DNA from: Leptolyngbyaceae cyanobacterium
GTDB lineage: Bacteria; Cyanobacteriota; Cyanobacteriia; Phormidesmidales; Phormidesmidaceae
Length of the DNA: 64,000 nucleotides
Assembly: GCA_965263355.1 (NCBI GenBank)
Contig: CBDHHL010000014.1
Span: 1 to 64,000, forward strand
Direction of reading: 5' to 3'
Shown here: positions 1,924 to 64,000 of the stretch, piece by piece
How positions within the stretch are numbered: the stretch's first letter is position 1
Layout of the letters: every line of letters begins with the position of its first letter
Made by a program: the position numbers and the translations under genes
Notes under the pieces: generated by a model
Told to the model about the DNA's origin: nothing
Databases searched by the model: none
The model's input: the letters and a program-made list of their open reading frames with translations, nothing else

Positions 1924-2340
1924 TTAAGGGATAAAGTTGACTTCCATGCCGTAAAGTGTCGCCTTAAGACAGCCCGTATCTCCAGCTGACGACGGCAATT
2001 GAAAGCCCATATGGGCATAACCAGTGTCACCAACACCACCAGGGGGATCGATACTCACGGGTTCTACTGGGCTGCTGAATGTCGGTGGCGTAGGTTCAGG
2101 TGTGGGAACTATGGGCTCAGGATCAGGGATGTCTTTTTCATCTTTCTTTTTCCCTCCACCTTGCGCTAAACCCGCAGCGCCACTTAACCCAGTTGTAGCT
2201 ACGGCATAGCCCCCAGTCGTCTCAGCAGCGCCCATTTTGTCAGATACAGCTGATGCAACAATTGTGATCGCGCCTAAGGCTAGAGAGCCCGCAGCAATCA
2301 TCAAAGCTACATAATCATCGCTATCAGTTACGTTCATCAC
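1924..2340 (-). CDS. membrane protein with Pro-rich linker
   Basis: N-terminal hydrophobic segments followed by a PDPEPIVPTPEPTPP tract. Confidence 0.5.
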   Translation of the reverse strand: MMNVTDSDDYVALMIAAGSLALGAITIVASAVSDKMGAAETTGGYAVATTGLSGAAGLAQGGGKKKDEKDIPDPEPIVPTPEPTPPTFSSPVEPVSIDPPGGVGDTGYAHMGFQLPSSAGDTGCLKATLYGMEVNFIP

Positions 2341-2461
2341 CGCTCTACCCCATCAACGGAAGATCTAGACAATGCCAACTGGCTTTTAACCTTTTCAATT
2401 AACCGAAATTTCCGGCATATCCAAAGTTGACAGCTTAGCTCTATTTTAGCATTTTCAGGGG

Positions 2462-3808
2462 GTGACACTCCCCGCCCTAGAAGGTCGAGGCTTCTTAAAG
2501 AAGTTACGCAGCAGTAGACGCTATACTGAAGCCGCCACGGTTCAGCATTGTTAGCGTTACTCTACGAGGGGAGGTCACCGCCCCTCGATTGACATTGGCT
2601 AGGTCTAAGCCTAGTTCTGTCGCTCCTTTTCGTAGGATATTCGCAGCACCGTTACAGTCTGCATTAATCAACCAACCTTTAGCGGTTCGATAGAGCTTGG
2701 TTGTGATTCGCTTACCTGAAGCTTTCCAGCCAATGGGTTTTTCACCAAAAGTAGGTAGGCTGTCGTTATCTAAGAACGATGCTTTCGAGGTGTAGCTTTC
2801 TTCGGTTTCAATGAATTGAATGCCGATTTCTTCAAGAACAGTCTTGAGCCGTTCTTTTAATTTGGCTGTGGGTAGTTGAACAAAGTTTTGATTGTTCCGC
2901 TTGCCCATACCTGACTCAGACTTAACGCCAGCATTCCAACCGAAAATGACGGTCCCAATATCGCTAGTAATGCAGTAATCAGCGATTTTACGACACACCT
3001 TATTGATGTAGTCGCGCATCCGTCGATTACGTTTCTCATGAGTTAGTGCGCAGTTACGGGACCAGAAATTGGCCTGATATCGGCCCATTTCACGATTGAC
3101 CTTATTGTTCCAGAAATTAGCCTGCTTACCGTCAATGATGAAGCTATCACCCAGCGTAGAGACGCACGTTAACCAGTTCTTGACACCGGGATCAATACCT
3201 AACGCATTGTCGAAATTTAAGGTCACAGGTTCACGCTCAGACCGATAGATGTATTCCACATAGAACGTATGGTTTCTAGGGAATATGCGGATCTCACGGA
3301 TCTTTTCTGGGTGAATGTTCATTGGAGCTGGGATATAGATAGCGTCTATCCCTTCCCACTGCTTAAACGACATCCCCAACGGCAACCGGATTAACCCGGT
3401 CTCTATGGCCTCATTCAGCCGTAGGTGTTGCGCTGGGTATGTGATGCCCGCTAAGCCACCACGTTTACGGTAGTGAGGCGGTTTAGGGCGATCTTTAAGC
3501 TCACCCTTAAACCACATAGATAGCAGCTCATCATAGGACTTGAACGACTCACAGACGACCATCAGCGTTTGTTGGGCAACTTGAGAAAACAATTGCCGAT
3601 AGTGACAATTATCTTTCAGATGTTTGTCTAACGGCTCATATTGGCTTTCTATGTGAGTCTTACTGACCATACGACCAGCACGCTTTAAGGCATAGATAGC
3701 GCAGTTGGTCAGGCTGTTGGCCTGACGACACAGGTACTCAATGATTGCCTGCTCAAAATCGGGCAGTTGCAATACATCTTGTTGACACGAAAAACTCATA
3801 TTTATCAC
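2462..3808 (-). mobile_element. IS200/IS605-family tnpB-only element (right end intact, no tnpA, no recognisable left end)
   Basis: Minus-strand right end GAAGCCTCGACCTTCTAGGGCGGGGAGTGTCAC ends at 2462; an HNH gene directly abuts the tnpB start. Confidence 0.7.
2504..3799 (-). CDS. tnpB: RNA-guided endonuclease TnpB (rearranged RuvC-II type, no Cys4 zinc ribbon)
   Basis: GIDPG (RuvC-I), VIFGWN with the Glu apparently relocated to TEESYTS, NADCNGAANI (RuvC-III). Confidence 0.92.
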   Translation of the reverse strand: MSFSCQQDVLQLPDFEQAIIEYLCRQANSLTNCAIYALKRAGRMVSKTHIESQYEPLDKHLKDNCHYRQLFSQVAQQTLMVVCESFKSYDELLSMWFKGELKDRPKPPHYRKRGGLAGITYPAQHLRLNEAIETGLIRLPLGMSFKQWEGIDAIYIPAPMNIHPEKIREIRIFPRNHTFYVEYIYRSEREPVTLNFDNALGIDPGVKNWLTCVSTLGDSFIIDGKQANFWNNKVNREMGRYQANFWSRNCALTHEKRNRRMRDYINKVCRKIADYCITSDIGTVIFGWNAGVKSESGMGKRNNQNFVQLPTAKLKERLKTVLEEIGIQFIETEESYTSKASFLDNDSLPTFGEKPIGWKASGKRITTKLYRTAKGWLINADCNGAANILRKGATELGLDLANVNRGAVTSPRRVTLTMLNRGGFSIASTAA

Positions 3809-4329
3809 TGAGAAATGTTTTTAACAATGAGACTCAAAAGCTCAGAAAATTCTTTATGCGCCATACCGTGTTTCATCCTATTGATACCTTTGAGTACCCA
3901 TTGCAAATTATTGATTTCGCTTGAACCACCTTTTGACTTAGGGATTATATGATCAACCTCTGCGTCTTTCCCTACAACCAAAGAGACCCCACTGTAAGGG
4001 CAGAGTCCGTTTTGCTTATTAAATAGATTGGCCAAATCTTCCCATCTACTGGAGTCTCGCCATAGCTTTACCGAAGCTCTTTTTAAGACACAAGTTGTGC
4101 ATCTAGTGTTGCCATTGACAGGGACGCCGGACTTGCATTCTGTGCATACTCCACTAGCACGCTTTTTGGCCCGATATTTTTTAGCTTGTTCGGCTTTCTT
4201 TTTGTTACAAACATCACACCTTCGCTTGCCATGGATTTCTACAGGCTGTCTGCACATCAAACATGAGCCTTGCTCTAAAAGCCTTGCTTGGTACTTTAGT
4301 ACATTCTTGTTGTTAGACTTAGCCATCAT
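3805..4329 (-). CDS. HNH endonuclease with N-terminal CxxC zinc-finger repeats
   Basis: CPYSG...EVDHIIPKSKGG...NNLQWV...NRMK HNH signature; four CxxC pairs upstream. Confidence 0.88.
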   Translation of the reverse strand: MMAKSNNKNVLKYQARLLEQGSCLMCRQPVEIHGKRRCDVCNKKKAEQAKKYRAKKRASGVCTECKSGVPVNGNTRCTTCVLKRASVKLWRDSSRWEDLANLFNKQNGLCPYSGVSLVVGKDAEVDHIIPKSKGGSSEINNLQWVLKGINRMKHGMAHKEFSELLSLIVKNISQ

Positions 4330-4417
4330 GTATCCACAAAACTATCTAATTATAGCGTGGATACATAAAAGAAGGAAGGGGTTTTATCCGGTTCCCGTGC
4401 CCTCTATTTTCTATAAA

Positions 4418-5260
4418 TCAGGGGATAAGTGTCTTGACCACATCGACGATATCTAAATAATCTACCAACCACGTTAAACCAATAACGACGAGGGCAGAAA
4501 GTGTAACCAAGCCTAAGTATTTAACTAGCAGCCAAAATACAGAATCATACGATTCTTTCGCGTGGGCTGCATCTTCTACGACATCAGTTATTCGTCTAGC
4601 TTTCTTTGCAAATGGCCAGCTAATCAACGAAATGTCATCAGGTTTTTTGGCTTCAAGCTTTGCGCCTTGGGGTATATGCGATATCGGAGTTCTTGACGTA
4701 ACTGTTTGTTCCTCTTCAGTGCCGTCAAATGTTGGATGTTCGATCACTCGCTCACCACCGGCAGTATCAAGCTGTAAAGATGCCCTTACTTCGTAGTCTT
4801 GAGTTTGAACAAAAGCGATCACATCCCCATCAATTAAATTTGCATCACTGGCGATCTCCGTTCCATTGAGGATCGGTTTACTGACTGCCCTAGCCCAATA
4901 AAATACTTGCCCCCTCCATTTGTGCTTCCCGATAACTCGCTTATCTTTAGTGCGCCCTCGCCTATCCTTAGACACAGGCCCGCCATTGATAAGCACCCAA
5001 CCTCTAGCTGGATCATACCCAATGCAAGCATGAACGCGAGACGCAATGCTTATGCTTACCTCTTTGGGTAAATCTGTCATATCAAATTGAACACCCCCAT
5101 TCAGAAAGGAGTGTTCTGGATTTATGTCAAAATGAGCCCGCCCAAACAACGAAAGTTTAGACGGACTTAAGGAAAACACTTTTGACTCGCGCCATTCGCG
5201 ACCGTACCGGGTGCTAATCAGCAAGGTTGCAAAACGGCTCTGCTTCGCAGGCGTAAACAT
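4418..5260 (-). CDS. FHA-domain protein with C-terminal transmembrane helix
   Basis: FGR, SRVHA, WVLING and LNG...LIDGDVI FHA motifs; hydrophobic LGLVTLSALVVIGLTWLV near the C-terminus. Confidence 0.7.
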   Translation of the reverse strand: MFTPAKQSRFATLLISTRYGREWRESKVFSLSPSKLSLFGRAHFDINPEHSFLNGGVQFDMTDLPKEVSISIASRVHACIGYDPARGWVLINGGPVSKDRRGRTKDKRVIGKHKWRGQVFYWARAVSKPILNGTEIASDANLIDGDVIAFVQTQDYEVRASLQLDTAGGERVIEHPTFDGTEEEQTVTSRTPISHIPQGAKLEAKKPDDISLISWPFAKKARRITDVVEDAAHAKESYDSVFWLLVKYLGLVTLSALVVIGLTWLVDYLDIVDVVKTLIP

Positions 5261-5385
5261 GCATAGTTATAAATAGGCAGCAATTGGGTAGATGCCCCTA
5301 GGTAGCCGTAAAATAGGCTATGAACCGTTATACAGCCTACGTTAGCACGATTTGATTTGTGTTGATACGGCAAATTGATATCACC

Positions 5386-5711: not shown

Positions 5712-6143
5712 ATGAACATCGATTTTGACACATTGAACCCTATCCTTGCAGGGGCATTGGCCCCTGCATTGTCCAGCGTACTACTAGTGATCAACCCACG
5801 GTTAGCACGGGCACTGAAAAACCTGATCCCTGGGATTAATAAATATTCGGAGATCGCTAAAACGATTCTCCCCATGATTGATGCAAAACTGGCTCAACAT
5901 ATTGATCTAGTTGATGGGACTGCTGACATATTGCGGACGGTGGCCGCTGGTGAGGTGACTGTATTGGGTATGACATCCCGGATGCGCCAAGTCGCCGGAA
6001 AGATTGGTGAGAACCCACGAGAGCTAAAAATTCTTCTGGATGCAATCGACGATGAATTTAAGCCCAGTGAGTTCAATAAGCTGAACAAGGGCGGCCCTGT
6101 GCAAACATCTGAGTTCGTTTCTGTTGACGCGCCTGGTCATTGA
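5712..6143 (+). CDS. hypothetical membrane-anchored protein; stop codon supplied by the IS right end
   Basis: ATG ORF with N-terminal hydrophobic segment; TGA at 6141-6143 lies within the IS end TTGA. Confidence 0.65.
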   Translation: MNIDFDTLNPILAGALAPALSSVLLVINPRLARALKNLIPGINKYSEIAKTILPMIDAKLAQHIDLVDGTADILRTVAAGEVTVLGMTSRMRQVAGKIGENPRELKILLDAIDDEFKPSEFNKLNKGGPVQTSEFVSVDAPGH

Positions 6144-6179
6144 CATGCTCCCCGTGCTGAAGCAGCGGGGATTCTATAG

Positions 6180-7394
6180 CTAAAGGTTCAGCCTAAGCTG
6201 CTCCCCTACTAAACGGCTAGACGGTTCAACACACCCTGCCGGAAACCCGGTCTTACAAGTGCTCCCCTGTCCATTTTTATGCTGTCGTGGGCTATCTCCA
6301 GCCCCGACAAAGTTTATATTCTTGGCTGCATTGCGGTCTCTATCGTGTAGAGCGCCGCAACTAAGACAGCGTATTTCCCGTACAGAAAGGTCTAACTTCC
6401 CCCAATGAGAGCCACAGTCAGAGCAATACTGACTGGTAGGCTCCCATCGGTCAATGACCCTCACTTCACGGCCATACATGGCTGCTTTCGCTTCCAGCAT
6501 CGTCCTGAACTCTCTCCAGCCTTGCTGGGATATTGCACGGGATAACTTACGGTTTTTCACCATACCCGATACATTCAGGTCCTCTAAGCAGATCACCTGG
6601 TTTTCTTTCACCAGCTGCGTACTGAGCTTGTGGAGGAAATCTTTACGGATATTTCGCGCCTTGGCTTTGAGCTTGGCAACACGTAACCGTGCTCGTTCTC
6701 TCCGCTTAGACCCCTTCTGCCTGCGAGACAAGACCCGTTGCGCTTTCCTAAGCTTGCGGTCTAGCTTGCTATAGTCTGGCCCTTCTATCGGCTCTCCATA
6801 GCTAGGAAAGGCAAACACCTTTATACCTAGATCGATACCGATAGAAGGATTTGTTACTGATTCCATGCTGGGCTCAGCTTCTACAACAAAGCTCAGGTAA
6901 TAATGGTTCTGCCTATCTTTGATGACGGTTACAGAACTTGGCTCACTGGGTAAAGGTCGAGACCATTTGGTTTTCACAGTCCCTATCTTTGCCAGGTAAA
7001 CCTTATTTCCTTTGAGGGAAAAAGCGGTCTTTGCAAACCTAGCCGTTTGCTTGTTGTCTCTTTTTTTGAACCTAGGAAACTGGATGGGTTTCCCCTTTCG
7101 CTTACCCTTGCGGCTATCGAAAAAGTTCTTAAATGCCGTCCCTAGATCAATCAATGATTGCTGTAGGGGTACAGCAGAAACATCAGACAACCAGCTACGC
7201 TCAACAGTCTTTTTGGCTTGGGTGATACATTGCTTCGATAGCTCTGTACTCGTCGGCCATTTCTCACCCCTAGGAATGGCCTTGATGGTTGCCAGTGCAT
7301 CATTCCAAACGACACGGATGCAACCGAACAACTTTGCTAAGTTGGCCTGTTGCTCCTTATTTGGATAGATTCTATACTGGTACCTGAGTTTCAT
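6180..7394 (-). CDS. tnpB: RNA-guided endonuclease TnpB
   Basis: YRIYP HTH start, GIDLG, LEDL, CSDCG/CLSCG zinc ribbon, DRDRNAA. Confidence 0.95.
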   Translation of the reverse strand: MKLRYQYRIYPNKEQQANLAKLFGCIRVVWNDALATIKAIPRGEKWPTSTELSKQCITQAKKTVERSWLSDVSAVPLQQSLIDLGTAFKNFFDSRKGKRKGKPIQFPRFKKRDNKQTARFAKTAFSLKGNKVYLAKIGTVKTKWSRPLPSEPSSVTVIKDRQNHYYLSFVVEAEPSMESVTNPSIGIDLGIKVFAFPSYGEPIEGPDYSKLDRKLRKAQRVLSRRQKGSKRRERARLRVAKLKAKARNIRKDFLHKLSTQLVKENQVICLEDLNVSGMVKNRKLSRAISQQGWREFRTMLEAKAAMYGREVRVIDRWEPTSQYCSDCGSHWGKLDLSVREIRCLSCGALHDRDRNAAKNINFVGAGDSPRQHKNGQGSTCKTGFPAGCVEPSSRLVGEQLRLNL

Positions 7395-7422
7395 TATTTA
7401 AGTATACTTGGTCTGAAGCAAA

Positions 7423-7824
7423 ATGGGTGCAGATTTAAGGCGGGAAAGGCATAGCGTCACTAACCTGTTAATTCATTTGGTCTGTGTCACTAAATATCGT
7501 AGAAAAGTCCTAACTCCCGAAGGGCTTGATACCATAGAAGCCGCGTTTAACTCGGTCGCTAAAAGCCTTAACTTTCAGGTGACAGAGTTTAATGGTGAAT
7601 CCGACCATGTACACGCCCTGATTGAGTACCCACCAAAACTGTCGGTGTCTCAACTGGTCAACTCGTTAAAAGGCGTCTCTAGTAGGCGGTATGGGCAAGC
7701 TGGGCACCTTAAGCCCTACGGTAGAAAAGCTTTGTGGAGCCCTAGTTATTTTGTTAGCTCAGTAGGCGGGGCACCTCTGGATGTACTCAAAAAGTACATC
7801 CAGGAGCAAGAAAAGCCGTCCTAG
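7423..7824 (+). CDS. tnpA: IS200/IS605 Y1 (HUH) transposase
   Basis: HLVCVTKYRR, DHVH, LWSPSY, YIQEQ. Confidence 0.95.
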   Translation: MGADLRRERHSVTNLLIHLVCVTKYRRKVLTPEGLDTIEAAFNSVAKSLNFQVTEFNGESDHVHALIEYPPKLSVSQLVNSLKGVSSRRYGQAGHLKPYGRKALWSPSYFVSSVGGAPLDVLKKYIQEQEKPS

Positions 7825-7973
7825 AAGGACGGGGTTTTAGACCCAAAATTTTGATAAATAGGGCAAAAAAAATGGGGCCGTTTCCGTGGCCCCATAATGT
7901 TCCCGTATTGAATTCGATTTCATCCAAATATATCTACAGTCTGAATCCTAAAAATCCAGAAAAAACAGATCAA

Positions 7974-18800: not shown

Positions 18801-20225
18801 CTACGCTACAGCGCAGGCTTCCCTTGACGAGAAGTTCTGCTTCGTTATTAACGCCTCATTAGAAACGCAAGTTAACGCCGTTTTAAGTGAGGCGCTATCC
18901 ATCCCCACTGTTAGCAAACCGATTCGCTTGATCAGTTTTCCAGAATTAACGTCTCTGGGAAGTGATTCACCGCAGCTATCGCAATCGTGCCATCGATCTT
19001 TTAGAGACTTTGGAACGCGGTTTAAGCAGTTCCAGCAGTGTTGCGATGTTCCACGCGGATCAATCTCGATTACTCGTTTACCAAGCTTGAAAGCAACCCA
19101 TTTTAAGACTTTGACAAACTGACCCAATGCAGCATCAGTCATCGATTTATTCAGCCCAGACTTAGCAGCTTGACCGTTAGGGATGAATTTCCCCTCTTCA
19201 GTTTTAGGTTTATTTCGTCTTATTAGATTCTTAAGCGATAAATCTTCGACGAATATCACTTCGCAATCGGAGAACAGTTTGTAAGCTGTTTTGTATTGCC
19301 AGTCAAGACGAGATCTAGCGATGTGAGTCTGGAGCTTAGCGATACGTTTTGCAAGAACCTTACGCGCCATAGAACCGTGAGGCTTCGATGCTTTTCTAGC
19401 TTGAAGTTTAGCGATCCGCTTCTCAAGTTTTCGATACCACCATGGGTTTTCTACTTGGATTCCGTCAGAACAAGACGCGAAAAATTCAACGCCTAGATCA
19501 ACACCTTTAGAGTTTATTTCAGTGGGATGAATCTCTACATCCACTACAGGCACTGATTTATCTTCGAGACTGAATGAAATAAAATAATCGTCAGTATCGC
19601 GCTTAATCGTAGCTGTCTTAACTGTGAAACCTTCAGGGATTTCTCTATGTTCGATGAAATCGAGAATACCGATTTTAGGTAACTCAACTTGACCTGAACC
19701 GATCAATTTAATTCCTTGAGGAAAACATATTGAACTGTAGTAAGGCTTACCTTTGAACTTAGGTTTACCTGATCTTTTACCGTTTTTATCGCCAAATACA
19801 AACCGATCAAACGCTTTTTTAAGGCGTTCAATACAATTTTGTAAGACTTGAGACGGCATTTCTTTGTATTCAGGAAATAGTTTTTTAGTATTTTTTAGAT
19901 CGTCTTTTTGAACGGTATACCAATCAACATATCCTTGTTGAATCAAAGAATACTCAGAACCTTTGTTTTTACCCTTAGATAAAATTTTCGATTCGGGAAT
20001 ATCACGATAAATCTCGTCAACAGGAACTATGAAGCTTGCTAGTGGACAAGCGTTAACAGGTGTTCGGGTGGCTTCATACCAGTTAAGGCGCTGCCCAAGC
20101 CTAAAATTCCATTGTCTACGACACAGTTCGATCCATTCGTCTATGGTTTTTTGTTGCCAAGACTCAAGACGTAATCTGTATTTTCTAGCAATTCTCATAA
20201 TTCTGTTGACTCGACCCATCGACAT
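18801..20225 (-). CDS. tnpB: RNA-guided endonuclease TnpB
   Basis: GVDLG, VEDL, CWNC/CDSC zinc ribbon, PRDVNS. Confidence 0.95.
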   Translation of the reverse strand: MSMGRVNRIMRIARKYRLRLESWQQKTIDEWIELCRRQWNFRLGQRLNWYEATRTPVNACPLASFIVPVDEIYRDIPESKILSKGKNKGSEYSLIQQGYVDWYTVQKDDLKNTKKLFPEYKEMPSQVLQNCIERLKKAFDRFVFGDKNGKRSGKPKFKGKPYYSSICFPQGIKLIGSGQVELPKIGILDFIEHREIPEGFTVKTATIKRDTDDYFISFSLEDKSVPVVDVEIHPTEINSKGVDLGVEFFASCSDGIQVENPWWYRKLEKRIAKLQARKASKPHGSMARKVLAKRIAKLQTHIARSRLDWQYKTAYKLFSDCEVIFVEDLSLKNLIRRNKPKTEEGKFIPNGQAAKSGLNKSMTDAALGQFVKVLKWVAFKLGKRVIEIDPRGTSQHCWNCLNRVPKSLKDRWHDCDSCGESLPRDVNSGKLIKRIGLLTVGMDSASLKTALTCVSNEALITKQNFSSREACAVA

Positions 20226-20261
20226 CTACTATGGTATACACGGTGATTAAAAAAGTCAAGC

Positions 20262-20708
20262 ATGAAACGTAAATATGTAGCAAGGTCTAGGGGTGTAAGT
20301 AATTTACACGGTCATTTGATAATTACGACAAAATATCGGTATAAGATCCTTACGGAACCTATGCTCAAGAGGTTGATAGAAATCCTCAAAGACTTATGTG
20401 AAAAATGGCAGTGTGAATTTATCGAGGCAAACGGTGAGCCAGATCACGTTCATTTGTTGTTCCGATACTTTCCGCAAATTGAGTTGTCAAAATTTATTGG
20501 AAACGTCAAAAGCGTTAGCAGCCGTAGATTACGGTCTGAGTTTCCAGAAATCGTTGAGCCCCGATATTGGAAAAAAGTTCTATGGAATGAAAGTTACGCT
20601 ATCGATGCTGTAACAAATGTTAAACTTGAAACTCTGATTAAATATGTTCAGACACAACCAACCGAAACGCTTCGCGAGGTTACAGAACGTTTCGGTTACG
20701 AGTTCTAA
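20262..20708 (+). CDS. tnpA: IS200/IS605 Y1 (HUH) transposase
   Basis: HLIITTKYR, DHVH, LWNESY, YVQTQ. Confidence 0.95.
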   Translation: MKRKYVARSRGVSNLHGHLIITTKYRYKILTEPMLKRLIEILKDLCEKWQCEFIEANGEPDHVHLLFRYFPQIELSKFIGNVKSVSSRRLRSEFPEIVEPRYWKKVLWNESYAIDAVTNVKLETLIKYVQTQPTETLREVTERFGYEF

Positions 20709-33548: not shown

Positions 33549-34940
33549 ATGAAGCTCCCCCACCTTAAAGAGGATGGGGGTGTCTTATGCTAACTTGAGG
33601 TTATCCCTAACCCACAGGTCACATAAGCAAGCCCAGCTTCCGGGCTTCCGTCTAGAACTTTTGCTAGAGCGGAACTCACGATCCTTTCGGTCAGTGAGCT
33701 TAAGAATTCCTCTAGCTGCGATGTTTTGACTCCCATTGAGGTCGCAGTTATACCGCTTGCCAGAAGAAAATTTTGCTAAAGCGTAGTTTTTAGAGTCACG
33801 CTTCACGACTCCAGAGCCATCATAAGCAAGCTTCGAAGTGTAGGCGGCAACGATATCTATGACTTTGCCACCAAGTTCCTTCCACTTCATTTCGGTATAA
33901 TCGCGAATCTTGCTTTTGAGCCATCCGTGGAACCGCTGACGGAGGTTAGAGCGCTTTTTGCCGCCCTTAGGTTTCCATCCTTTTAAGTTCTCAAAGACAA
34001 TAGCTTCAGAGTTGTGGTCTTTGGCTATGTTAACTATTCGCCTAGAAACGATGTGGCCAATCTGGGTGTTGATGTTCCGACATTTACGATAGGTGTTAGA
34101 GCAAAATCCTTTATGGAGTTTGCCGCCTTTCCCCATCGTCTTGTTGGCTCTCATTGATACAGACTTTAGGCGTTTGTCACGACGGTCTATGTCTCTTCCA
34201 GGGTGAATAAATTCACGATAGATTACAGTACCGCAATGGGTTACGACTGAAACTGTAGCTGTAGTATTTATTCCAAGGTCTACAGCAACCACATTTTTGT
34301 CAGGGTTCCGCTTTACTGGCTTGCAATGAAACGGAACCGATAAATGACATGACTTAGCATTGAGAATGAGTGACGGTGACAGCATTTTGTTACCTGCTAT
34401 CTCATGGCAATCCCTAAGCCCTGTGATTTGAACCATCGTCCAAACCCAATCAGACCCGGTGAACACCTTGATCTCAACCTTGTCTAAGCCATGCAGCTTG
34501 TAGCACTGCCCTTTGTACAGCGCTGGATAGCACCCAGCATCAGGGTTTAGCAATGGGGGTTTAGCATCTCGACGTTTGCGAGATTGCCCGCACTGCCAGT
34601 CACGATACCGGGTCATGTAGCTACTAACCTGGCCAATCGCAAAAGTGATAGCAGCCCTACGGTAGTAGCTGGGGAACTTATGAAACACCCGGTTGATTTG
34701 CGGGTATTTCACGTCTGGGCGGTTGCTGGTTGCGTGCATTAGACGCTCAACCGCTGGTGTTCTCTCATCTGCCGTGAGCGGTGCTAGCTCTGGCCAGTGC
34801 GTAAAGACAATACCCACTAAATACCGACACACACGACGATAGATCTTAATCGTTTCACCAAACAGCAGGCGCTGTTCAGTGGTTGGATTAAGCGTCCATT
34901 TGTCGGTACGGATGATTTTTGTGGGTTTTTTCATCTTCAT
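33549..34940 (-). mobile_element. IS200/IS605-family tnpB-only element (right end intact)
   Basis: Right end CCCCCATCCTCTTTAAGGTGGGGGAGCTTCAT ends at about 33549; no tnpA; left end not resolved. Confidence 0.7.
33585..34940 (-). CDS. tnpB: RNA-guided endonuclease TnpB
   Basis: AVDLG, VFENL, AYTSK, NCDLNGSQNIA. Confidence 0.93.
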   Translation of the reverse strand: MKMKKPTKIIRTDKWTLNPTTEQRLLFGETIKIYRRVCRYLVGIVFTHWPELAPLTADERTPAVERLMHATSNRPDVKYPQINRVFHKFPSYYRRAAITFAIGQVSSYMTRYRDWQCGQSRKRRDAKPPLLNPDAGCYPALYKGQCYKLHGLDKVEIKVFTGSDWVWTMVQITGLRDCHEIAGNKMLSPSLILNAKSCHLSVPFHCKPVKRNPDKNVVAVDLGINTTATVSVVTHCGTVIYREFIHPGRDIDRRDKRLKSVSMRANKTMGKGGKLHKGFCSNTYRKCRNINTQIGHIVSRRIVNIAKDHNSEAIVFENLKGWKPKGGKKRSNLRQRFHGWLKSKIRDYTEMKWKELGGKVIDIVAAYTSKLAYDGSGVVKRDSKNYALAKFSSGKRYNCDLNGSQNIAARGILKLTDRKDREFRSSKSSRRKPGSWACLCDLWVRDNLKLA

Positions 34941-59396: not shown

Positions 59397-60743
59397 CTAC
59401 CCCACCGTGTAGACGGATGGGGTTTCAACACTCCCCATCTTGCGGTGAGATTTCTGTCTCTTCGCCTGTCCCAGTTGCTTCATTCCTCCCGTATGTTTAC
59501 GGTTTTCAGAAGTAGAGCTGAGACATCCAAGACTAACGAGGCTGAAATTTCCTAACCCCGGTTGATTGTTGGTCGCAACGTTGTACATCACCACAACTGA
59601 GCCACGGTCACGGGGGATCTCAAAGCCGCATCCATCGCAGATGTGATAGCGGTTACTGAGTTCTGCCCAGTGTTTATGCACCTTGCCGCAGTTGGGGCAG
59701 CGTTGCGAAGGTTTGACCTTTTTGGTCGGCAAAAACAGGACTAAGCCCCCTTTTTGCTCAATCTTGTACGTCACCATTTTGTTGATGGTGCCAAAGCCAA
59801 CAGATAGGATCTCGCGGTTGAGTCCAGCTTTCTGGCGTTTCCGCTTACTCCCCTTTTTGGCCTTTCGGGTCATCCCTTTAGTGTTGAGCTTTTCGGTAAC
59901 GCCGATGTCATAACGACTTGCAATGTCTGACGTTACCTTGTGCTGCCAGTCCTTACGCTGACGGGCAGCCTTAGCCTTCAACTTAGCCTCACGTCGATTC
60001 GCCTTCTTCCATCGACGTGAGGCTTTTTGACCCTTTACAGGGTTACGCTTTCGGCGTTTAGTCTTAGCGACTTTCCGAACTTTTTTATTTGTCTCTCTAC
60101 TAAACCTGGGATTCTCCAGCTCGGCAAACTCCGAACCGTCAAACAGGGTCAGGGCTGTTTCTGTTCCCAGATCATAGGCAACCATCGACTCATACGCCAA
60201 GTCAGACTCAGATCCAAATTGAACGACCGGATCTGCAACGTTGACCGTAATCGAGGCATACCAGGCTTTTTGACCAGGCTTGTAAATAATGGTGCATGTT
60301 GTCGGCACACCCCATTGCTTAGCCTTGCCGCGCATCTTGATCTTGATGCCCAACAGCTCTAAATACCCGTGTGTACCTTCAGTGTGGGCAATCCAGCCAG
60401 ACTTAGCCGGATAGGTCCACCCTGAGTACTTACGAATCGACTTGAACTTAGGCAAACCGCCTAAGCCTTTGAAAAACCGCTGATAAGCAAAATCAACACG
60501 CTTAAGTGTTGCCTGGATAGCTTGAGAGCCTAACGCCTTGAACTCTGGCCATTCAACCTTGAAGTCTGGCAAACAGTTCTGTTGAGCAAAGTAGTCAACA
60601 GAGATCCCCCATTGCTTCCACATTGTTTTTCGCTCAGACACGGCAGCATTGTACAGATAGCAATGCAATCGACGTGCATCAAACAAAGCCCGCTCTTGAG
60701 CCTTGTTTGGATACAGTCGAAATGTCTGCCGCCTTACTGCCAT
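59397..60743 (-). CDS. tnpB: RNA-guided endonuclease TnpB
   Basis: FRLYP, AYDLG, VTEKL, CPNC/CDGC, PRDRGS. Confidence 0.95.
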   Translation of the reverse strand: MAVRRQTFRLYPNKAQERALFDARRLHCYLYNAAVSERKTMWKQWGISVDYFAQQNCLPDFKVEWPEFKALGSQAIQATLKRVDFAYQRFFKGLGGLPKFKSIRKYSGWTYPAKSGWIAHTEGTHGYLELLGIKIKMRGKAKQWGVPTTCTIIYKPGQKAWYASITVNVADPVVQFGSESDLAYESMVAYDLGTETALTLFDGSEFAELENPRFSRETNKKVRKVAKTKRRKRNPVKGQKASRRWKKANRREAKLKAKAARQRKDWQHKVTSDIASRYDIGVTEKLNTKGMTRKAKKGSKRKRQKAGLNREILSVGFGTINKMVTYKIEQKGGLVLFLPTKKVKPSQRCPNCGKVHKHWAELSNRYHICDGCGFEIPRDRGSVVVMYNVATNNQPGLGNFSLVSLGCLSSTSENRKHTGGMKQLGQAKRQKSHRKMGSVETPSVYTVG

Positions 60744-60841
60744 AAATAAATAGAGCGCAAAAAACAAAATCAGTTGATAGTTGCTGATACAGCTAAGTTA
60801 ACATAGAATCAGGGGAATGAGTAGAAATCAGTAAAAGTGCT

Positions 60842-61261
60842 ATGAAATCTGGCTCACATGTCGTTTATGACATTCACCTGCATATTGTGTTTATCACTAA
60901 ATATCGTCGCCAAGTGCTTACACAGCCCATGCTTGAGAGGATGTCTGAGGTTGTTAAGCGTGTCTTGGAGTCTAACCGGTGTGAGCTATCAGAGCTGAAC
61001 GGGGAACCGGATCATGTCCATCTGCTGGTGGACATGCACCCGGATAACAACATTTCTAATCTGGTCTCATCCCTGAAATCGGCTACCAGCCGCATTCTTA
61101 GAAAGGATTTCAAGGATGAAATAGACAAAGTTTATTGGGGCAAGGCCAAGCTGTGGCACGATGCAAAATGCATTGTCAGCTGTGGCGGTGCCCCCCTAGA
61201 AAAAGTCAAACAGTACATTCAGGAACAAAGCGGCGGGAGAGTGCCTAGCTCTACTTCGTGA
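60842..61261 (+). CDS. tnpA: IS200/IS605 Y1 (HUH) transposase
   Basis: HIVFITKYRR, DHVH, YIQEQ. Confidence 0.95.
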   Translation: MKSGSHVVYDIHLHIVFITKYRRQVLTQPMLERMSEVVKRVLESNRCELSELNGEPDHVHLLVDMHPDNNISNLVSSLKSATSRILRKDFKDEIDKVYWGKAKLWHDAKCIVSCGGAPLEKVKQYIQEQSGGRVPSSTS

Positions 61262-63300: not shown

Positions 63301-64000
63301 TGCTTCATAAAACCTATACAAACCTAGACATCTAGGATTAGTTGTTTACTAAACGCTTCAACTACAGGCGTCGGCGCTACTGTATCCACGTTTCTTAAAG
63401 AACTCAAGCCGAGTCCTATTTTCAGAATATTTAGAGCTGCATTAAAATCTCTGTCCAGCTTTGAACCGCAATTTTTACAGTCAAATATTCTATCCTTTAG
63501 AGTTAAATCTTCTTTTTTCCATCCGCATTGAGAACATGTTTTTGAACTTGGTTCCCAGCGCGAAATAAAGACCAATTCAGACTCATAAAGCTTGCATTTG
63601 TATTCAAGTTGGCGTCTGAATTCATGCCACCCCATCAAACTAATGGCACCTGCTAATTTATGATTTGCCATCATGCCTTTAATATTCAAATCTTCTAGGC
63701 ATATGACAGAAAAGTTTTTAGCTAAATAGGTTGTTGATTTATGCAAAAAATCAAGCCTTATGCACTTTGCTTTATAGTGCAATTTTTGAATTTTTTGCAT
63801 AGCTTTTTGCCATCGGGTGGAACCTTTTGTTTTGTTCCTGGCTACGTATTGAAGCTTAGCTATTTTTGCCTTGATCCTTTTGTATTCAGTTATTGGAGCT
63901 TCTAAGATTTCACCATTAGACAATGTTCCAAAAGTTTTTAGCCCTAAGTCGATCCCTACAGCAAGCTTGGTTTTTGCTTGTTGAATAGGTTCAACTTCTA
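63299..64000 (-). mobile_element. IS607-like element, right part (runs off the window)
   Basis: End lacks the IS605 hairpin/TCAN; shows short direct repeats CTAGATGT/CTAGGTTT/ATAGGTTT ending AGCAGG. Confidence 0.6.
63324..64000 (-). CDS. tnpB: RNA-guided endonuclease TnpB, 5'-truncated by window edge
   Basis: Frame open to the edge incl. VGIDLG; CLEDL, CSQC/CKNC, DRDFNAA. Confidence 0.93.
   Translation of the reverse strand, partial: EVEPIQQAKTKLAVGIDLGLKTFGTLSNGEILEAPITEYKRIKAKIAKLQYVARNKTKGSTRWQKAMQKIQKLHYKAKCIRLDFLHKSTTYLAKNFSVICLEDLNIKGMMANHKLAGAISLMGWHEFRRQLEYKCKLYESELVFISRWEPSSKTCSQCGWKKEDLTLKDRIFDCKNCGSKLDRDFNAALNILKIGLGLSSLRNVDTVAPTPVVEAFSKQLILDV

Follow-up and report, generated by a model that had tools for sequence, protein, structure and literature searches.

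Why should the predicted guide of a TnpB nuclease half-match the junction upstream of its own gene, and why does an HNH endonuclease gene occupy the slot of the transposase? The locus that raises this question lies on the minus strand of a 64,000-nt stretch (hereafter the window) of contig CBDHHL010000014.1, assigned to a Leptolyngbyaceae cyanobacterium, which looks from its open reading frame (ORF) translations like a cyanobacterial phage or prophage genome. Here an FHA-like gene, the HNH gene, tnpB, the right end of an insertion sequence (IS), the guide and a small gene for a membrane-protein-like product (2340-1924) follow one another (Table 1). An earlier note on this DNA had proposed a dedicated two-nuclease homing cassette aimed at cassette-free sister phages. 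We give a probability of roughly 55% to another history: a decayed IS605 element had its left junction repaired with sister-allele DNA, so that some 20-23 bases of the target, up to the TnpB cut, now stand there as a second copy, and the HNH gene invaded the element later. The locus looks more like two selfish genes nested by accident than like a purpose-built two-enzyme system.

In outline, an IS605 element with a rearranged-site TnpB would have inserted after TTAT in the final codons of the FHA-like gene, and the flank behind its right end would have become the guide. The left junction would then have been rebuilt from a sister allele, placing the target-adjacent motif (TAM) and about 20-23 target bases before the left end, by way of a TnpB break in that allele joined to the left end through microhomology repair. 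Finally, a free-standing HNH gene with a promoter-hairpin would have landed before tnpB, its arrival depriving the left-end hairpin of its 3' arm and the element of any tnpA; the remnant is there to be seen, and the order of events is our reconstruction. An element with such a past would no longer be movable by TnpA. Its TnpB would probably cut sisters that keep the original empty site, being copied across by recombination or harming them, the HNH enzyme would act likewise on sisters at its own putative site, and the two would hitch-hike together without having evolved as a pair.

The guide and its copy at the left junction

The pattern CCCCTGA-N7-AAAATAGAG occurs in the window solely at 2461-2439 and 4424-4402 (minus), and two matches were obtained in none of 100 shuffles. 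The match reported in the earlier note, TTAT (4428-4425) directly followed by guide bases 1-7 and 15-23 about 2 kb upstream, is therefore real. The controls were 65 related tnpB loci whose right end could be read and which had 500 nt or more of upstream sequence; up to 3 kb upstream was scanned. Chance gave 16 or more of 23 matches in 4/65, for which reason total identity was rejected as evidence in itself, and a 7-nt seed match in 7/65; both together occurred in 0/65. The seven mismatched bases (guide positions 8-14) hold a second TTAT (4416-4413). Sister sequences were available from three runs (X1, X2 and X3; two samples, one study). In X2 a loose end at 4416 begins like the left copy and continues like the right flank, so that the spacer is polymorphic among sisters. 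The block is probably an allele difference, the two copies coming from different natural alleles.

If the left end begins at 4404, the upstream copy consists of 20 flank bases plus a GAG common to the left end (guide positions 21-23). TvTnpB, which has the same rearranged active site, cuts at positions 21-22 (PMC10530073) and ISDra2 TnpB at 15-21 (PMC8612924). Because the copy ends at guide positions 20-23, the cut site, and shares GAG with the left end, microhomology repair of a TnpB break is its likeliest origin. IS605 elements insert without target duplication, whereas a mismatched copy of TAM and target stands at this left junction.

In ISDra2 TnpB, double mismatches within positions 1-12 abolish cleavage (PMC10097598). 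The resident upstream copy is mismatched at five of these 12 positions, all of them in 8-12, and by the ISDra2 rule the mismatch at guide positions 8-14 should stop TnpB from cutting its own junction, much as the earlier note had supposed. With self-cutting blocked in this way, TnpB could still home into or kill sisters without TnpA; such homing is plausible, and TnpB homing has been described, for IS605 also in the absence of TnpA (PMC13565253, 10.1101/2023.11.20.567912, PMC10448857). Dead TnpB binds genomic sites with a TAM and little seed match (10.1101/2023.03.14.532601), and binding at the resident copy may likewise remain despite the mismatches.

The start of the guide was placed from the right end. 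The 4-mer ahead of the right-end hairpin covaries with the end, reading GAAT/TCAA in 71 related loci and GAAG/TCAC in the window and in its closest relative, L047 (one locus). Because of this covariation we set the guide start at 2461, behind a TCAC right end that the earlier note had identified correctly. Hairpin, DNA guide and matching tetranucleotide are all present, as in an IS200/IS605 element. The pairing of DNA guide and tetranucleotide is a rule from work on IS608; it held when checked on related loci of the clade, and fits seven left-end types read by eye, with linkers of 12-20 nt.

The TAM varies across the TnpB clade (TTAT, CTAT, TCAC, TGAC, TTAG, ACAC, TTAC), and a clade-wide TTAT was rejected for that reason. 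A TAM borrowed from the neighbouring IS was rejected as well, since the neighbour's TnpB is of a different type. For the present element TTAT is predicted from L047, which has a 65% identical TnpB, a divergent tnpA, a contig beginning at TTAT and the guide AAAA, together with AAAA in the element's own remnant. Among 401 genomes we found no TnpB closer than that of L047, and the right-end pattern had 0 matches in these genomes and 0 in viral contigs. The neighbour itself (6140-7853) is a complete IS605 with tnpA and a canonical tnpB, carried by most of the sequencing depth; an empty allele joining 6139 to 7854 in run X3 fixes both its ends and bears out the TTAT TAM that the earlier note had ascribed to it.

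TnpB meets the family profile NF040570 with 130.9 bits (cut-off 100) and matches PF01385. RuvC-I D206, a shifted RuvC-II E336/E337 and RuvC-III D384 (434-aa numbering) are invariant in 8 aligned proteins, and the nuclease looks intact, as previously claimed. As in the rearranged-site TvTnpB ("TnpB2"; PMC10530073), the canonical RuvC-II glutamate is absent (GWN) and a conserved glutamate lies about 45 residues later; the present protein differs in its cyanobacterial clade and its predicted TTAT TAM. Judged from sequence, a TnpB with this rearranged triad is probably active. The omega-RNA scaffold has a strong fold (z = -4.59 for 2588-2439) and no match in Rfam.

The left-end remnant and the HNH gene

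The earlier note had described a locus with neither tnpA nor a left end. Indeed, the ORFs at the locus include no tnpA in cis, Y1 transposases being present elsewhere in the window (7423-7824), and the left end is broken. It is not missing: half of an IS605 left-end hairpin survives as TAAAACCCCTTCCTTCT (4386-4370), which agrees in 16/17 bases with the 5' arm of the left-end hairpin of the neighbour; a search of both strands of the window gave no better match. Shuffles of the spacer reached 15/17 in 0 of 20,000 cases, and 1.5 Mb of order-3 Markov sequence contained 0 sites within 3 mismatches, figures to be read as post hoc, as the match was noticed first and tested afterwards. It ends at the hairpin loop, where the HNH leader begins, and its DNA guide AAAA predicts TTAT. 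A mobile element would have a complete left-end hairpin at 12-20 nt from its TAM; here the hairpin is reduced to its guide, 5' arm and loop, and TTAT lies 27 or 39 nt off. A remnant of this kind had been named beforehand as evidence against a dedicated cassette.

Run X1 suggests where the left end starts. One of its contigs covers 2316-4399 and the next 4375-5341; from these ends and the 30-nt overlap of other X1 contigs (5826-6139 and 6110-7862), a 35-nt node at 4370-4404 appears to be common to another sequence. Its end at 4370 is the hairpin loop, the point from which the sequence of an intact left end would differ, and its end at 4404 leaves a 19-nt linker ahead of AAAA, within the 12-20 range of relatives.

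The HNH protein scores above cut-off for PF01844 and PF13395 and carries Cys-rich repeats; its active-site residues D125-H126-N140-N149 (P0001 numbering) are invariant in 18 aligned relatives. In read-through RNA the leader hairpin covers the ribosome site and the start codon, and folding pairs the start region with P ~1. The TATAAT inside this hairpin was read by eye, a promoter scan giving nothing above chance on the minus strand, and the short transcript keeps a weak fold of -4.9 kcal/mol. Leaders of phage homing nucleases have a promoter-hairpin that hides the ribosome site (PMC2988022, PMC2677866), and by this analogy the HNH gene resembles the homing endonuclease genes of phages that stand free and bring a promoter-hairpin along.

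As the earlier note had it, the HNH gene stops just before tnpB: its stop codon (3807-3805) lies 5 nt ahead of the tnpB ATG (3799), and overlaps an in-frame GTG. Among 74 close-family HNH loci, 55 had room downstream, and in 23/55 a gene starts at -11 to +15. These 23 coupled loci involve 20 neighbour gene families, with tnpB in one, so that placement is sporadic; tight abutting is a general habit of the HNH family, and tnpB is one of many neighbours. Across 160 HNH loci a tnpB match fell within the fetched flank in 6 and was the next gene downstream on the same strand in 2, L129 and the looser L171 with a distant HNH. Conversely, 126 tnpB loci searched with this HNH alone gave one weak match, 3.6 kb away, and a further 8 searched with the same query gave no HNH (HNH adjoining tnpB, 0/134). 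A recurring, co-varying HNH-TnpB coupling is thus not found, the one tight case in 160 HNH loci belonging to another TnpB clade.

That case, L129 (IMGVR_UViG_3300033075_001926, 2438-4595), comprises a C-terminal stub of an IS607 transposase (NF033518, E 6e-8), a 294-aa HNH gene and tnpB, the last two overlapping by 4 nt; its viral contig has a second such HNH (L134). L129 shares with our locus the HNH family (38% identity), the overlap with tnpB and the loss of the transposase, and differs in TnpB clade and transposase type. No target copy was seen on its left side, and its right end is not mapped. Of the search for other coupled HNH-tnpB pairs, then, one independent overlap stands, and a recurrent coupling does not; judged by sequence, L129 leaves a weaker form of the two-nuclease idea alive.

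Sister phages and competing explanations

Depth in bins across 2608-5291 is 13-39 (one bin 34-92, at a diverged gene end) versus ~40-460 in the flanks over the three runs, summed depth being no copy number. Other genes take the place of the block at a loose end (5287) of X1 and X3, and sisters mostly replace the FHA-HNH-tnpB block as a whole. The majority variant of run X1 holds the right-flank bases 2417-2446 behind a joint 2345-2417 whose shorter side is 30. In the majority of sisters a 71-nt stretch (2346-2416) is swapped for 5 other bases; this stretch and the loose ends at 2416 and 5287 are module borders of a variable region.

Several observations weigh against the history of a rebuilt, HNH-invaded IS605. 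A cuttable empty allele, though predicted, is not found among the matches listed in the three runs. The same matches contain no joint 2461-4425, whereas the neighbouring IS shows its joint; the empty allele that the earlier note had predicted is thus not seen there, its string itself not having been scanned in the collections. No copy of the element with a complete left end was obtained, and its start at 4404, like the node 4370-4404, is placed by contig ends from 1/3 runs, the matching contigs of X2 (2413-5341) and X3 (2416-5316) being unbroken. The remnant stretch could instead be a decayed terminator, as it folds into a weak hairpin before a U run. Folding of the free RNA, which takes in neither pseudoknots nor protein, pairs the scaffold with guide bases 1-5 (P ~0.9-1.0), and a guide-free fold costs 6.5-9.7 kcal/mol. 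TnpB may for that reason be a poor nuclease here, and in the folding model the pairing could be a site-specific misfold. The first five guide bases are complementary to the 5' hairpin arm of the scaffold and extend a predicted pseudoknot helix (2575-2457, minus).

Against these points the alternatives have to be set. We consider it unlikely that the locus is a functional two-nuclease homing module, in which HNH and TnpB are co-expressed, cut cassette-free sisters on the two sides of the block and spread jointly, as in collaborative homing. Both active sites appear intact, the two genes form one operon-like unit behind the putative HNH promoter, the same junction recurs in a second contig (90,077 nt), whose protein P0026 keeps the GTG extension, and L129 independently joins the same HNH family to an unrelated tnpB behind its IS607 stub. 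Against this, tight coupling was confined to one case, plus the looser L171, in 160 HNH loci and to none of 134 tnpB loci, abutting is generic for the HNH family, the block is rare in the population by depth, and no cuttable allele is among the matches listed. Together with the left-end remnant, these findings turn us away from the dedicated cassette. Similarly improbable is a true left end after the second TTAT, with 12 nt duplicated by recombination of two insertions or by an alternative TTAT and the 9-nt match a coincidence of linker and flank. TTAT-AGAA also opens the left end of L047, and the linker of another relative (L113) begins GAAAATAG-CACGGGA, both pieces of which are present here; yet the linker would measure 27 nt against 12-20 in relatives, the 9-mer lies in exact register (chance ~1e-5 to 3e-5 per position), and the X1 node reaches to 4404, whereas this reading calls for 4412.

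We see little chance that TnpB merely binds its own left junction through TAM and 7-nt seed, dampening read-through into the HNH-tnpB operon. The binding of dead TnpB at TAM sites with little seed match (10.1101/2023.03.14.532601) and the position of the site, ~50 nt upstream of the TATAAT box, would suit such a role, but the triad is intact, the arrangement is not conserved in 65 related loci, and any binding would have come with the duplication as a by-product and not as a trait under selection; a literature search on non-cutting TnpB regulators found nothing. Hardly better placed is an inert relic, the guide misfolded or susceptible alleles all gone and the block neutral cargo in a variable region. 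The in silico pairing of guide seed and scaffold fits, all sister junctions glimpsed among the matches listed mismatch the guide, and 89% of TnpB clusters are immobile (PMC10691335), but neither of the two nucleases has a broken reading frame or active site, the scaffold keeps its fold, and the folding leaves out protein and pseudoknot.

The locus is in any event a real, non-random chimera of two known kinds of selfish element. With the IS200/IS605 TnpB-omega-RNA homing systems (ISDra2, ISGst; PMC8612924, 10.1101/2023.03.14.532601, PMC13565253) it shares the right-end hairpin and tetranucleotide, a flank-derived guide, a TAM equal to the insertion motif and a non-restorative homing that would need no TnpA; unlike in these, the left-end hairpin is halved and an HNH gene fills the tnpA slot. 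With the phage homing genes SegB, MobE and SegF (PMC2988022, PMC13565253) it has in common a variable block and, as predicted, a promoter in a hairpin hiding the ribosome site and self and non-self told apart by allele differences, whereas here an RNA-guided nuclease, in place of an intron, stands beside the HNH, which has a Cys-rich N-terminus. The main text of the TnpB census (PMC10691335) makes no mention of HNH, and in titles and abstracts, most subscription papers lying outside the search, neither an HNH gene in the tnpA slot nor a guide-length duplication was found described.

If the history of a rebuilt, HNH-invaded IS605 is right, the locus preserves a natural trace, seldom met with, of imprecise TnpB homing, in which the duplicated bases run up to the cut, and likewise of a transposase displaced by a classical homing nuclease. 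It offers a small, testable case of whether a TnpA-less TnpB spreads between phages and of how 89% of TnpB clusters become immobile yet intact. Intronless and collaborative homing have been described (PMC13565253), and a bolder generalization, which we hold to be doubtful, is that HNH homing genes repeatedly take the transposase slot of phage IS605/IS607 elements to form transposase-free, collaboratively homing modules of a protein and an RNA-guided nuclease; here imprecise TnpB homing would have left the guide-length duplication to the cut site, and the allele mismatch would confer self-immunity. By such a route, which would be new, a transposon could turn into a free-standing homing element, though a single chimeric locus and one analogue show no new system.

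Locus map and neighbouring observations

Table 1. Features of the HNH-tnpB locus in window coordinates
Feature	Position	Strand	Basis
FHA-like gene, C-terminal membrane helix; TAM and guide bases 1-7 in final codons	4418..5260	-	ORF; FHA matches in distant relatives P0045 and P0047 alone
TTAT, predicted TAM and original insertion tetranucleotide	4425..4428	-	sequence; L047 left end begins after TTAT, guide AAAA
Upstream target copy (7 matches, 7 mismatches, 9 matches), probably a sister-allele flank	4402..4424	-	pattern comparison
IS605 left-end remnant: 19-nt linker (putative start), DNA guide AAAA 4385-4382, hairpin 5' arm and loop, without 3' arm	4370..4404	-	comparison with neighbour IS; fits putative 35-nt node in run X1
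HNH leader hairpin enclosing TATAAT box 4354-4349	4328..4366	-	folding
Cys-rich HNH endonuclease, 174 aa	3805..4329	-	family scan, alignment
tnpB, 431 aa	2504..3799	-	family scan, alignment
Right end (guide GAAG 2494-2491, hairpin, TCAC 2465-2462) with predicted omega-RNA scaffold; 5' limit approximate	2462..2590	-	covariation, fold
Predicted guide, equal to phage flank	2439..2461	-	pattern; bases 2417-2446 also in majority sister variant of run X1

What had been called an FHA gene is better termed FHA-like, as the protein itself has no Pfam match and FHA scores above cut-off in 2 of 4 scanned distant relatives. Its cluster has 4 members. Two alleles end in KTLIP, on contigs of 102,311 and 90,077 nt, and contigs of those sizes also carry the 434-aa TnpB. 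The two ending in KTLIR (P0022 and P0044, on contigs of 99,029 and 22,494 nt) are not linked to this tnpB, and with that ending the seed at their junctions would differ from the guide. On the 22,494-nt contig the FHA-like allele (P0024/P0044) is frameshifted and split into pieces of 238 and 51 aa.

Single-protein queries with the FHA-like, HNH and downstream proteins found no loci in viral contigs, the downstream gene none in metagenome contigs, and the left-remnant pattern 0 matches in viral contigs. GenBank phages gave 9 short tnpB matches, none covering the locus.

The window contains at least six tnpB-like ORFs, four of them further genes at 18801-20708, 33585-34940, 59397-61261 and 63324-64000, two with tnpA-like neighbours. 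Other ORFs presumably encode, to go by their translations, a primase, a lysozyme and a tape-measure-like protein. Guide bases 10-18 (2452-2443, minus) read TGCTAAAAT, which we take to resemble a promoter of the extended -10 type serving the downstream gene and which is absent from the upstream copy. The last codons of the downstream gene likewise read TTAT-CCC-T plus stop (FIP*; 1934-1911, minus), a weak TAM site with 3 seed and 12/20 guide matches that is probably due to chance.

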